Positions 1 to 8,486 of a stretch of 8,486 nt of DNA are shown one piece after another; position 1 is the stretch's first letter, and each line of letters starts with the position of its first letter. Where the stretch lies: IMG/VR virus record IMGVR_UViG_2634166492_000010. One strand, 5' to 3'. This DNA comes from a virus (lineage: Duplodnaviria; Heunggongvirae; Uroviricota; Caudoviricetes). The notes under the pieces were generated by a model. It worked only from the letters and a program-made list of their open reading frames with translations. It did no database searches and was not told where the DNA came from. A program made the position numbers and the translations under genes.

Positions 1-1
1 G

Positions 2-286
2 ATTACCGCGCCGGGTTACTGGTTTTACCGCAATGATGAATTTGTCTTTGACTACAGACTCAAAGCGGAAGATGAGCGTGATGCCCTTCTGGCTCAGGTC
101 AGTGCCCGGACAGGGGAATGGGAAGAAGACCTGCTGCTGGGGTTAATCAGCGACGAAGATAAAGAAAAGCTGAAAGCCTGTCGTATTTACGCGAAATCGC
201 TGCAGGCGATGGATTTCAGCACCATCACTGATAAATCCTCATACAACGCCATTGAATGGCCTGCCTCTCCGGAAGGTTCTTCCTGA
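2..286 (+). CDS. Phage tail fiber assembly protein (Tfa / P2 gpG / Mu U-like), C-terminal fragment; 5' end lies outside the window
   Basis: Frame 2 is open from the window edge to TGA at 284-286 and is not in the ORF track because it has no start codon in the window. Translation ends ...DEDKEKLKACRIYAKSLQAMDFSTITDKSSYNAIEWPASPEGSS, matching the conserved C-terminal pattern of Caudovirales tail fiber assembly proteins (acidic stretch, then a hydrophobic motif ending in EWPxxP). It lies immediately upstream of a tail fiber gene. Confidence 0.55.
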   Translation: MTAPGYWFYRNDEFVFDYRLKAEDERDALLAQVSARTGEWEEDLLLGLISDEDKEKLKACRIYAKSLQAMDFSTITDKSSYNAIEWPASPEGSS

Positions 287-309
287 TTTAATTTATCGCG
301 AGAAAAACA

Positions 310-1449
310 ATGTCTGTAGTGATATCAGGTGCGCTGACTGATGGCGCAGGTATCCCCATGTCCGGATACCATATTATTCTGAAATCCCGGGTAAACACCC
401 CGGAAGTGGTGATGAACACTGTTGCTGATGTGATGACAGGAAACGATGGTGAATACTGTTTCCATGCGCGGACTGGAAAATATGGTGTGTATCTGAAACA
501 GGACTGGCGCAACGAGTACAACGTTGGCGACATTGCTGTATATGAGGACTCAAAGCCCGGCACGCTGAATGACTTTCTGATTGCTCCTGATGAGGGCGAC
601 CTGAAACCGGATGTCGTCAAACGCTTTGAGGAAATGGTGGCGCAGGCGCAGCAGAGCGCCGGGGCCGCAGCCGGAAACGCACAGCAGACGGCGCAGGATG
701 TGGCGGCAGCCGCAGGTTATGCCCGCGCAGCAGAGCAGGCCAAAAATGACATTGATGCTGCGCTGACCGGCACCCTGAAAACGGCTAACCATCTGTCTGA
801 AATCGCAGCAGCAGGCGAAAAGGCACAACAGAAGTCCCGGGATAATCTGGGGCTGAAAAGTGCGGCCACGATGGAAGCACAGAGCGACATTTACGACCGG
901 ACAAAAGGCCGTCTGGCGATACCCGGCGCATTCGGCTTTGGGTGTGCTTTTCTGCCTGAAGATGTTATCCGTTTTGACACTAAGAGTGATTTCCTGGCCT
1001 GGGTAAGGAATGCGCTGCCAGGTGAATATTCCGTTGCTGGCCCTTACGGCATCATCATACCCGACACACGGTTTGAAGGGGTGCTCAGCATCCGGTGGAC
1101 TGATGCACGCCCTGAGACAACAGAACCGCGGTACAGAGCCAAATCCCTTACTTTTTACGGCATTAACGGCCCCATTTATCATACCCGCTACTGCTACTGG
1201 CCCATATCCAGACTGACTGACTGGGTGAAAATAAATATAACCACAGAAGATATTATTTACAGAATCGTGGCGAGCTCTGTCCGCAACAGATGGGGAGACC
1301 CTGACATTGGCGGGCTGATTATTGCTGCGTACCAGGGAGAAGCTGACGGTGATAAAGTCATCAGACTTGTCAGGGGCAGTCATACAGAGGCTCACGACTG
1401 GGACCGGTGGGGATTTCAGTGCCCAGTACTCCCACCGGAACGTATATAG
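310..1449 (+). CDS. Side tail fiber protein (379 aa): lambda Stf-like N-terminal anchoring domain, Ala/Gln-rich shaft, unrecognised C-terminal distal domain
   Basis: ATG at 310 with a weak SD-like GAGAAA upstream. N-terminus MSVVISGALTDGAGIPMSG...VYEDSKPGTLNDFL closely parallels the lambda Stf N-terminus (MAVKISGVLKDGTGKPV...ITVYEDSQPGTLNDFL, recalled from memory). Residues about 110-190 are Ala/Gln-rich, typical of fiber shafts. The C-terminal 180 aa (Trp/Tyr/Cys-rich) did not resemble any fiber tip domain I recognise. Confidence 0.8.
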   Translation: MSVVISGALTDGAGIPMSGYHIILKSRVNTPEVVMNTVADVMTGNDGEYCFHARTGKYGVYLKQDWRNEYNVGDIAVYEDSKPGTLNDFLIAPDEGDLKPDVVKRFEEMVAQAQQSAGAAAGNAQQTAQDVAAAAGYARAAEQAKNDIDAALTGTLKTANHLSEIAAAGEKAQQKSRDNLGLKSAATMEAQSDIYDRTKGRLAIPGAFGFGCAFLPEDVIRFDTKSDFLAWVRNALPGEYSVAGPYGIIIPDTRFEGVLSIRWTDARPETTEPRYRAKSLTFYGINGPIYHTRYCYWPISRLTDWVKINITTEDIIYRIVASSVRNRWGDPDIGGLIIAAYQGEADGDKVIRLVRGSHTEAHDWDRWGFQCPVLPPERI

Positions 1450-1587
1450 CATCCCCACAATTTTTCATTACGGGATGTTCAGAGCATTCATTACCGGGGT
1501 CATATTGCGCCCTGTCCGGGGTGCCGGATGCACATGTCTCTGGCGCAATGCCCGGGCTTTTTATTCGCACATCGTGAGGAATGCACC

Positions 1588-2151
1588 GTGGAAATTAAAA
1601 AAATCATTAATCCCCGTTATACCGAAAGTGGCGCAGTAGACTGTGACGTTTTTTTTGACGACAGGGACCAGGCAGTCCCCTACACAGCCACCGCTGATGA
1701 TGTCGCACCGACGGGTCAGCAAATCTGGCAGGAACTGCAAAGTGGCAAATGGGGTGAGATAGCCCCATTCACTGTGACACCAGAAATGCTGGAAGCGGCC
1801 AGAGAGGCCAGACGTCAGGAAATTGAAGCATGGCGCGCAGAACAGGAGGCGAAGCCGTTCACGTTTGAATGGAACGGTCGTATCTGGAATGCTGGTCCCG
1901 ACTCACTGGGCCGCCTGTCCCCGGTAGTCATGCTGGCAAAATCTGTCACAGCACAAACACATATGGCGTGGAGCGATGCGGATAATCAGCAGGTGAAACT
2001 GTCGATGCCGGAACTGGAAGAACTGGCGGCAGCAATGGTGCAGGCGCAGGTCGATCGCAACGATGAGATTTATCGCCGTCAGCGGGAGCTGAAGGAAGAG
2101 CTGAATAGTCTGAAGGATTTGAATTCGGTTAGGAATTTTATCGTGGAATAA
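1588..2151 (+). CDS. Tail fiber assembly chaperone, DUF4376-like; probable GTG start at 1588 (ORF track extends the frame to ATG at 1528)
   Basis: Open frame to TAA at 2149-2151. GAGGAA SD about 7 nt upstream of in-frame GTG at 1588; the N-terminus from the 1528 ATG (MHMSLAQCPGFLFAHREEC) looks non-native. Motifs EIEAWRAEQEAKPFTFEWNGRIWNAGPDSLGRLSPVVMLAKS and the C-terminal coiled-coil-like RQRELKEELNSLKD match DUF4376 proteins encoded downstream of enterobacterial prophage tail fiber genes (from memory). Confidence 0.6.
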   Translation: MEIKKIINPRYTESGAVDCDVFFDDRDQAVPYTATADDVAPTGQQIWQELQSGKWGEIAPFTVTPEMLEAAREARRQEIEAWRAEQEAKPFTFEWNGRIWNAGPDSLGRLSPVVMLAKSVTAQTHMAWSDADNQQVKLSMPELEELAAAMVQAQVDRNDEIYRRQRELKEELNSLKDLNSVRNFIVE

Positions 2152-2157
2152 CAGAAG

Positions 2158-6840: not shown

Positions 6841-7683
6841 GTTGGAGTCATTACCTGCACGCTTTTCTTTTAGCCATGTCGGTGTACCGTCGTTGGCAAA
6901 TAATTCACTGTTATCCCGTGAGGTATCGATGCCGAGGTGTTCACCTCCCAGGTTAAGAAACTCGATATGAGGAAGAAAGTTTTTAAATGTTGGGTTTGAA
7001 AATACCTGTCCATCAATACGGGTGGAGCGATCTTTTAGTATTCTGGCGGTGCGCCACACCTGACCGGTTTCTATGTTCATTTGCTTCTCCATCTGGATCA
7101 GGATGGAGGGTTCATAACCGGTTTCTGTTTCTGCTTTCATTTTTATACCGGTTTTTGCCAACTGGCGTTTGCCATCATCACCTTCGAAAAAGTCATACTC
7201 ATATCCTGCACGCCCGCACATAATAATGTGCGCCTGACTGTTAACAAATCGATCGGTAAAGCGTCGCCACTCCTGTTTGAGCCACGCCCAGTCTGAAAAT
7301 TCCAGTCCTCGTTTACGGTTTCGGCGTCTGGCATACTCGTCGCATAATCCGGTCCAGAAGTGACTGATGGAGTCGATGATCATTACGGAACCGCTGCTTT
7401 CCGCTTCATTAATGGCTTCAAGCAGATCAACAAACGAGCGGGTTTTTGCCGTAAATAATTCGATATTTTCCGCATCAAAGCGGGGTTTAACCCAGTCAGA
7501 GCCTGTTTCTGTGTCCAGAAACATTACCGGGCGGTTACCAGCTTCAATTCCCCGTTGCCGCATAAGCATTACCAGACCAATAGCCAGTTCGCTTGCTGTG
7601 TAGGTTTTGCCGTCGCCAGCAAACCCCATAATTCCTGCTTTTAGATAGGCCTGTGTGTTTATTGCTCGTTGAAAAAGCGCCAT
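6775..7683 (-). CDS. Phage-associated P-loop NTPase (RecA-like; AAA_24/Sak4-like is the best guess); native 276 codons (6856..7683) fused to 26 IS1-derived codons, so 3'-truncated by IS1
   Basis: Walker A GFAGDGKT at residues 19-26, followed by FLDTETG; Walker B-like MIIDSISHF. The C-terminal 26 aa ([26 protein letters not shown]) are translated from the IS1 terminus, so the native 3' end is missing. ATG at 7683 is preceded by GGAGG lying inside the upstream gene's end (translational coupling). Family assignment is from motif pattern only. Confidence 0.6.
6833..6855. repeat. IS1 terminal inverted repeat, insB-proximal end
   Basis: atcagtaagttggagtcattacc, the reverse complement of the canonical IS1 end (ggtaatgactccaacttactgat). 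Confidence 0.85.
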
Positions 7684-7688
7684 AGATT

Positions 7689-8009
7689 TTAGTCCTCCAA
7701 ATCAATATCAACCTGGTGGTGGGCAATGGTTTCAGCCATGTACCGGATGTGTTCTGCCATGCGCTCCTGAAACTCAACATCATCATCAAATGCGTGGCTG
7801 ATTGCCTGTTTATTGGCACCGTGGCGTTGCAAATGGTCGATGCAGAGCGATTCAAACAGGTGCTGAGGCAGACCTTTTTCCAGGTCGTCCGCCAGTTCCG
7901 TTTCTTTTTCTTCACGAACGATCTGCTGGTAGTGGCGAGCCCATGCCATTTCTTCAATACGATCAAAAATCGGGTAAGCGCTCTGAGGTAGCCTGAGTTT
8001 AACGGACAC
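7689..8009 (-). pseudogene. Acidic hypothetical protein, apparently 5'-disrupted by the IS3-family element (native sequence 7689..7983); an alternative intact 86-aa product from ATG at 7949 cannot be excluded
   Basis: The frame is open from inside the IS left end (GTG at 8009; first 9 codons are IS-derived) to TAA at 7689-7691. Residues are acidic (...[32 protein letters not shown]...[32 protein letters not shown]). The stop is 5 nt from the ATPase start. No family recognised. Confidence 0.35.
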
Positions 8010-8047
8010 TCCTTCCTGAAATAGAATGGCATCAGAAGGAGCTAATA

Positions 8048-8350
8048 ATGAGCAGAAAAACCCAACGTTACTCTAAAGAGTTCAAAGCCGAAGCTGTCAG
8101 AACGGTTCTTGAAAATCAACTTTCGATCAGTGAAGGCGCTTCCCGATTATCTCTTCCTGAAGGCACTTTAGGACAATGGGTTACCGCCGCCAGAAAAGGG
8201 CTCGGTACTCCTGGTTCCCGCACGGTGGCTGAACTGGAATCTGAAATTCTGCAACTGCGTAAGGCGTTAAATGAAGCTCGCCTTGAGCGAGATATATTAA
8301 AAAAAGCAACAGCGTATTTTGCACAGGAGTCGCTGAAAAATACGCGTTAA
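8048..8350 (+). CDS. IS3-family transposase OrfA (helix-turn-helix / leucine-zipper subunit)
   Basis: 100 aa [45 protein letters not shown]...[22 protein letters not shown], the typical IS3 OrfA architecture. SD GGAG sits 8 nt upstream of the ATG. Confidence 0.9.
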
Positions 8351-8486
8351 TCGAACAATGGCGACAACAATTTCCCATTGAAGCGATGTGTCAGGTATTT
8401 GGTGTATCCAGGAGCGGTTATTACAACTGGGTACAGAATGAACCCTCAGACAGAAAACAAAGTGATGAGCGGCTAAAACTGGAGAT
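8300..8486 (+). CDS. IS3-family transposase OrfB, N-terminal part (reached by -1 frameshift from OrfA); 3' end outside the window
   Basis: Slippery run A AAA AAA G at 8299-8306 inside OrfA. The -1 frame then reads ...[50 protein letters not shown], characteristic of the IS3 OrfB N-terminus, open to the window edge. Confidence 0.75.

Follow-up and report, generated by a model that had tools for sequence, protein, structure and literature searches.

The DNA considered here, referred to as the window, is the 8,486-nt virus record IMGVR_UViG_2634166492_000010 of IMG/VR (Caudoviricetes), which corresponds to the complete draft contig AMWM01000054.1 (8,486 bp) of assembly GCA_000826695.1. The window spans that contig from end to end, and neighbouring sequence is therefore not available for inspection. 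It carries tail-fibre genes on the + strand, the sitABCD metal transporter operon on the - strand, a copy of the insertion sequence (IS) IS1, and the damaged remains of two leftward early phage genes, an AAA_24 ATPase gene and gam. These are followed by the left part of an IS3-family element, which we take to be IS600 from its terminal sequence and OrfA. All 8,486 nt can be assigned to features (Table 1). Read from left to right, the window passes from late tail-fibre genes through cargo on the opposite strand, in the b-region position, to leftward early recombination genes. It is an IS-decayed remnant of a Rac/lambda-type prophage that carried sit, in a genome of the Shigella type, and this is an ordinary kind of decay that has already been described.

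Table 1. Features of the window (positions in the 8,486-nt contig; a dot marks a feature without strand)
Feature	Position	Strand	Evidence
Tail-fibre-assembly gene (Caudo_TAP), 3' part, running off the contig end	1-286	+	PF02413, seen on the gene called in L009 (the window reversed); aligns to tfa of E. coli O121, VL46 and S. flexneri
Tail fibre, prophage tail fibre N-terminal domain	310-1449	+	PF08400, E=2e-70; phrog_2636 'tail fiber protein', E=3e-174
DUF4376 tail-fibre-type gene, last late gene	1528-2151	+	PF14301; phrog_1141 'tail fiber protein', E=3e-88
sitDCBA iron/manganese ABC (ATP-binding cassette) transporter, complete; moron cargo in 'b-region' position	2352-5801	-	ABC-3 (two), ABC_tran and ZnuA domains
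sit upstream region, 286 nt; P arm of a Rac-type attP/attR	5802-6087	.	100% to S. flexneri L020 14935-14650
IS1, 768 bp, no target-site duplication	6088-6855	+	InsA/InsB domains; terminal inverted repeats; flank comparison
AAA_24 (Sak4-like) ATPase gene, 5' 276 of 365 codons	6856-7683	-	PF13479
gam host-nuclease inhibitor gene, codons 2-98 and stop	7689-7983	-	PF06064; phrog_259
IS3-family element (presumed IS600), left 503 nt, running off the contig end	7984-8486	+	HTH_Tnp_1 open reading frame; 99.4-99.6% to copies in L004, L007 and L020

An earlier note on this DNA, made from its letters alone, had compared the arrangement to the non-integrated map of phage lambda rather than to the end of an integrated prophage. 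The opposed strands on which that comparison was built, with fibre genes on one and a Sak4-like ATPase and its partner on the other, are borne out by the domain calls. The pair is indeed present, with Gam as the partner, though both of its genes are damaged. IS1 had been placed exactly at the junction. It does lie between the two modules, but the sit operon (3.45 kb) and a further 286 nt separate it from the fibre genes, and the complete sitABCD operon had been left out of the gene inventory. The reported lack of an integrase, an excisionase or a tRNA-type att site stands. In the window, ARAGORN found no tRNA or tmRNA, no Rfam family of structured RNA was matched, and no open reading frame or domain of an integrase or excisionase was present. 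The Rac-type att core is missing from the window, both as a 17-mer and as the full 26 nt, and so is the host gene (ttcA or uspF at the Rac site) that would adjoin it. The only att-like direct repeats in the window are short ones at chance level, besides the inverted repeats of IS1.

Among 5,426 complete E. coli genomes, two match the window over more than 80% of its length, both in permuted order. The integrated form of this phage type is found in E. coli O121, where one short prophage lies between two copies of the 26-nt Rac-type core AAGAAAGAACAATACAATCTGAACAA. Its left end reads ttcA|attL-intR-xisR-DUF1187-ATPase-gam-recE and its right end tfa-fibre-DUF4376-sitDCBA-attR|uspF-ompN. The O121 copy is 99.9% identical to the window over ATPase-gam and 98.6-99.8% identical from fibre to sit. 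Since O121 holds both modules between attL and attR, both belong to one phage type. Moreover, the two modules stand at opposite ends of the O121 prophage, so that the order in the window is a circular, or vegetative, permutation and not that of an integrated end. A comparison of base composition between 1-2151 and 6856-7983, which the earlier note had proposed, is uninformative (GC ~0.52 against 0.47-0.49); O121 carries both segments in one prophage.

The permuted order occurs in S. flexneri, whose relatives of the window were found by look-up of the window's proteins. At least 15 closed genomes of the S. flexneri type carry recE-IS600|gam-ATPase (365 aa)-IS3-type element-excisionase-IS1-ΔintR-~430 nt-sitABCD-DUF4376-fibre. 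Among them is AE014073 (locus L020), which we take from its accession to be strain 2457T. The excisionase of these relatives matches phrog_539 and ΔintR matches phrog_216/phrog_1. The stretch from ΔintR to sitA overlaps the attL and attR of O121 by 43 nt, and in it the integrase-side (ttcA-mimic) arm, the core and the sit-side arm follow one another uninterrupted by host DNA. With both arms and the core present and host DNA absent, this stretch is a true attP (P'-core-P). The window aligns to L020 in the same order and orientation, the orientation of IS1 included, and the IS600|gam junction (CGCTC|TGAGGTAGCC) is nucleotide-identical in the two. Two segments of L020 are missing from the window, each adjoining IS1. 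These are 13865-14649 (785 nt, holding ΔintR, the core and 44 nt of the P arm) and 11155-13096 (1,942 nt, holding xis, the IS3-type element and the 3' end of the ATPase gene). Alignment to relatives, another of the proposed checks, thus supplied the missing attP, int and xis from O121 and S. flexneri.

The same gene order is found in free phages. In lambda-like isolated coliphages, the tail fibre is followed by sitDCBA and then by int-xis-exo-recT-gam, and the sit genes are 98.1% identical to those of the window. Mathieu et al. (2020, PMC6969025) report sitABCD on 70% of their lambda isolates and a Fur box upstream of it. Phage 1H12 (NC_049947) resembles the window in having its tail fibre on the + strand, sitDCBA on the - strand and then leftward early genes, which are int, xis, an exonuclease, an annealase and gam, all on the - strand. 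Unlike the window, these sit-phages are intact and viable. They also differ from the window's phage type in their integrase and att type, in carrying RecT/exo where the window's type has RecE with the AAA_24 ATPase, and in ~2.2 kb of extra b-region open reading frames between sitA and int. Together with the O121 permutation and the S. flexneri attP locus, the free phages support the earlier reading of the window as a non-integrated, lambda-like map.

The Rac prophage of E. coli K-12, whose attB is in ttcA, resembles the window's type in its att core and ttcA-mimic arm, with an intR/xisR-type module in the window's relatives. Rac and these relatives have in common the early-left operon kilR-ydaE-racC-recE and a right end that adjoins uspF-ompN. 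K-12 Rac differs in having recT-ralR-rcbA where the window's type has gam, the 365-aa ATPase gene and DUF1187, and its cargo is ydfK/pinR instead of sit. A contractile tail module in some relatives is a further difference from K-12 Rac.

The sitABCD island encodes a binding protein, an ATPase and two permeases. All four genes are intact in the window, and sitABCD is annotated as such in E. coli and in phages. Overall, the window matches the sit locus of S. flexneri 2457T at 99.6%; SitD is identical and SitA differs by one amino acid, with Ile in the window and Met in 2457T at codon 132 (window position 5406). The window base at 5406 is absent from all closed genomes examined, and the exact SitA variant was found in 12 short draft contigs only. 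Over 4.8 kb of the sit region, a single mismatch separates the window from the closed genomes L032-L039.

Upstream of sit, IS1 cuts the region 44 nt short of the att core (L020 14580-14605). Read directly from the letters, this region holds a perfect palindrome, AAACATAGC-AACG-GCTATGTTT, at 5834-5855 and a Fur-box-like sequence, GAAAATAATTATCATTAAC, at ~5878-5896. The palindrome is presumably MntR-box-like. The regulatory region of sit seems to be untouched by IS1 at -286. The window shows how sit, a virulence-associated metal transporter, is kept with an intact regulatory region while IS elements erode the phage that delivered it. A 19-nt segment, CGCTGTATAAGGGGCAAAA, that lies between direct repeats of GGGGCAAAA is missing at window position ~6028 and in S. 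flexneri 2457T. It is kept in the closest closed genomes (L032, ~8840) and in L010, and the E. coli form is 31 nt longer. This indel looks like the slippage type and may have recurred independently. It is one of five characters, with the IS600|gam, IS1|ΔATPase and sit|IS1 junctions and an IS66 insertion described below, for which no single tree was found to fit; the characters conflict.

IS1 has terminal inverted repeats at 6087-6110 and 6833-6856. Its flanks in the window, TGAAAAATA on the left and TGCACGCTT on the right, lack the 8-9-bp direct duplication. In four simple IS1 insertions used as controls (L002, L003, L022 and L030), target duplications of 8-9 bp are present. The missing duplication therefore identifies the IS1 of the window as a derivative of deletion or recombination and not as a simple insertion. 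The copies of IS1 are nearly identical across loci, and their internal single-nucleotide polymorphisms (SNPs) have no power to reveal a hybrid element. IS1-adjacent deletions and inversions between IS copies are well established in Shigella genomes. As in such rearrangements, the window keeps IS1 without a target duplication between flanks from non-adjacent ancestral positions. Likewise, one half of the junction pairs with different partners across strains, and no mechanistic difference is seen.

The earlier note had offered two explanations for the junction: an IS-mediated deletion of attP and int that immobilised the element, or a fusion of two prophage remnants by IS recombination. The missing target duplication fits both. 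The word immobilised overstates the effect of the IS event, because the element was already dead: int is cut by IS1 in the relatives, IS600 lies in recE/gam, and genes for the head or for replication are not linked to it.

With modest confidence, we favour descent of the window from a junction like that of S. flexneri, with an internal attP, followed by IS1-adjacent deletions. The circular map of the phage would have run from the tail fibre through the sitDCBA moron to attP, int and xis, and on to the leftward ATPase, gam and recE genes. In an ancestor of the S. flexneri type, this circular order would have become fixed in the chromosome as an attP-internal junction, either by tandem lysogeny or by insertion of a phage circle through homologous rather than att recombination. 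IS1 would have landed in intR before the deletions in the window's lineage. One IS1-adjacent deletion would then have taken away what remained of intR together with the att core and 44 nt of the P arm. Another, on the opposite side of IS1, would have removed xis and the IS3-type element and cut 89 codons from the end of the ATPase gene. The product would be sit-286 nt-IS1-ΔATPase-Δgam-IS600, in which sit and its promoter region are intact and the phage genes are dead. Descent from an S. flexneri-like junction explains the shared IS600|gam junction and the kept order and orientation, which a chance join among the many IS1 flanks would rarely recreate. The order of these events, and linkage by descent rather than by later IS1 recombination, are what we infer from these comparisons.

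Several observations weigh against descent. Closed genomes with a nearly identical sit region, which share four lineage-specific SNPs and an identical sit|IS1 junction with the window, have mppA upstream, beyond sit's IS1. The same genomes carry an identical IS1|ΔATPase junction (100% over 1,896 nt) 0.7-0.86 Mb away, where it adjoins a different truncated integrase gene (Δint') beside ybhA-modCBA. In this split arrangement, TATTCTCAGTTC marks the mppA side and CTTCGGCAAGAC the Δint' side. Split closed genomes also lack the window's IS600|gam junction; they have 1,314 nt of recE there, between IS600 and gam, and their recE is only 95% identical to that of S. flexneri. They contain an IS66 at window position 2037 that is absent from the window. 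Across genomes, the IS600|gam and IS1|ΔATPase junctions occur in all four combinations, and IS66 at 2037 conflicts with the SitA SNP at 5406. Sister draft contigs with the window's SitA (L010 type) break off 3-4 nt from the junctions of IS66 (2037) and IS1 (6088). Such ends imply an IS66 that the window lacks, and this conflicts with a simple tree. Lastly, the join itself rests on a draft contig that crosses a full-length, high-copy IS1.

The split genomes point to another possible origin, though one that we hold to be distinctly less probable. Two prophage remnants may have been joined by homologous recombination between IS1 copies, in a single large inversion, and the vegetative-looking order would then be secondary. 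The remnants would be a sit-bearing right arm from the Rac site and a gam-ATPase early-left arm with a different integrase beside ybhA-mod. The closed genomes with near-identical sit have precisely these halves on separate IS1 copies, as mppA-IS1-sit and Δint'-IS1-ΔATPase-gam. In CP054892.1 the two copies are mutually inverted and 0.86 Mb apart, and one inversion would give exactly the arrangement of the window, or the reverse. The partner flank of the ΔATPase IS1 differs between the closed genomes L004 and L007, which indicates that IS1 exchanges do occur, and Δint'-IS1-ΔATPase beside host genes looks like the natural left end of a prophage. However, the window has the sit-linked IS600|gam junction of S. 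flexneri and not the ybhA-linked IS600-recE'-gam, so that an inversion would have to be accompanied by a further deletion, of 1,314 nt, with precisely the same end point. The order and orientation found in S. flexneri would also rarely be restored by an IS1 partner taken at random.

It is unlikely, but worth weighing, that the arrangement is an assembly artefact, with a draft join through collapsed multi-copy IS1 and possibly also through a repeated gam-ATPase segment. The contig is a complete draft contig of 8.5 kb and yet has a whole 768-bp IS1 inside it, and its join is present in no closed genome examined. Draft contigs with the same SitA variant (L010) stop 3-4 nt from the IS1 and IS66 junctions, and an IS66 that they seem to contain is missing from the window. 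In the fibre gene, a homopolymer difference, G5 to G4, hints at error-prone reads. Against a chimera, two wrong turns would be needed, one at IS1 and one at the gam-ATPase repeat, and a random misjoin would be expected to miss the synteny of S. flexneri. In addition, a SNP 10 nt from the IS600|gam junction does not carry the S. flexneri allele, which indicates that the junction was read on the strain's own background.

That ATPase-gam is a non-phage island or defence system lying beside the late genes by coincidence is very improbable. For the ATPase, the best PHROG (phrog_1366) is one without a known function, and at the 'near' DNA level the ATPase was not found in any isolated phage of the collection; however, Gam belongs to a phage family of host-nuclease inhibitors (PF06064/phrog_259), and the pair sits in the canonical early-left operon kilR-ydaE-racC-recE-gam-ATPase-DUF1187-xis-int of att-bounded prophages in E. 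coli and S. flexneri, a genomic context that effectively refutes the idea and rules out the non-phage island named in the earlier note.

Descent, inversion and chimera are all ordinary processes, and beyond annotation the significance of the window is small. Where a contig of a draft Shigella assembly crosses IS1, linkage should be inferred from it only when reads support the join. Both the IS-driven instability of the sit island and phage-borne sit have already been published. As summarised in PMC7545054 from Fisher et al. 2009, the pathogenicity island (PAI) sit lies at several chromosomal sites among lambdoid remnants with many IS elements, deletions and rearrangements, which are attributed to homologous rather than site-specific recombination. 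The window resembles PAI sit of S. flexneri and pathogenic E. coli in having sitABCD in a lambdoid prophage remnant. It differs from 2457T in lacking attP, ΔintR, xis and the IS3-type element between sit and the ATPase gene, and its IS1 junctions lie elsewhere.

The attP-type junction fixed in S. flexneri illustrates cleanly how a chromosome can come to hold genes in a vegetative-looking order. Contiguous Rac-type attP (P'-core-P) is found in the chromosome of 38 of the 5,426 complete E. coli genomes (~0.7%), and 7 of these 38 have sit adjoining; these genomes, like the free phages, lend the map independent support. The query was a 241-nt sequence spanning attP, which matched 2,925 genomes in all; the sampled matches below 80% are of the attL or attR type. 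E. coli Jnd12 (L042/L043, NZ_CP095820.1 ~2.652-2.713 Mb) has a Rac-type early-left arm with intR, an intact attP and a b region inside another prophage, whose own end, at rspB (the Qin site), carries a different integrase. The Rac segment is flanked by duplicated DUF977-replisome organiser-ydaT genes, and it looks like a phage circle captured by homologous recombination. In E. coli H22, a single att core is present in the 40.7-kb locus examined around the attP junction.

Both tandem lysogeny and homologous capture are possible origins of the S. flexneri attP. The two E. coli genomes examined, H22 with its one core and Jnd12 with a circle apparently inserted into the Qin-site prophage, do not bear out a simple tandem lysogen as its explanation. 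Tentatively, the sit island of the S. flexneri type may represent a prophage of the Rac family that became fixed in vegetative permutation and kept an intact attP inside it, by way of a tandem dilysogen or a homologously captured circle. Its attP might still be usable by a Rac-type integrase acting in trans, and the window would represent a lineage in which IS1 erased the site.

The ATPase fragment matches PF13479 at 53 bits (cutoff 27, E=5e-14). Its 3' end (89 codons) is lost to IS1 at codon 276, and its frame runs 26 codons into IS1 to form a fusion open reading frame at 6775-7683. The full-length gene of 365 codons is found in L002 and L020. Its product has a long C-terminal extension, and among phage families it matches phrog_1366 best (E=1e-79). 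The match to phrog_124, 'Sak4-like ssDNA annealing protein', is weak (E=1e-8) and covers residues 9-167 only. Gam matches PF06064 at E=4.7e-55 over profile positions 2-97 of 98. Its native start (CAT in E. coli, on the reverse strand) is replaced at 7984 by the end of IS600, and the only start left for gam is an in-frame GTG inside IS600.

In Rac-site prophages (L002 15731-19048; L020 7334-11424), recE is followed by gam, the 365-aa AAA_24 ATPase gene and DUF1187, while the K-12 type of Rac (compare L042 6869-10724) has recT-ralR-rcbA in that slot. The AAA_24 ATPase may be an uncharacterised partner of RecE. In E. coli VL7S7 (L001 15339-18828), the integrase and excisionase ahead of the ATPase-gam early-left arm are different ones and lie beside yebY, and the right (sit) end still adjoins uspF. 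This suggests a chromosomal rearrangement between two prophages.

The fibre gene at 310-1449 encodes 379 aa, compared with 421-422 aa in its S. flexneri and E. coli relatives. The shorter C-terminus results from the G5 to G4 homopolymer difference near 1376, which shifts the frame. This could be a real frameshift or a sequencing error of homopolymer-prone chemistry; if an error, it affects the reliability of the contig. The tfa-fibre-DUF4376-sit cassette (99.5% to the window) is joined to a contractile-tail module with baseplate J, sheath initiator and spike in E. coli VL46 (L045 1-14300) and in L028. In L029, L030 and phage 1H12, the tail to which the fibre-sit cassette is joined is of the lambda J/lom type. 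Evidently, the fibre and sit cassette moves between tail types. In S. flexneri 2457T (L020 1-2534), an ipaH effector gene lies beyond a second copy of DUF4376, in the cargo slot behind the last fibre gene, where sit also lies. The remnant from which int-xis-ATPase-gam came may therefore have carried ipaH as a moron of its own.

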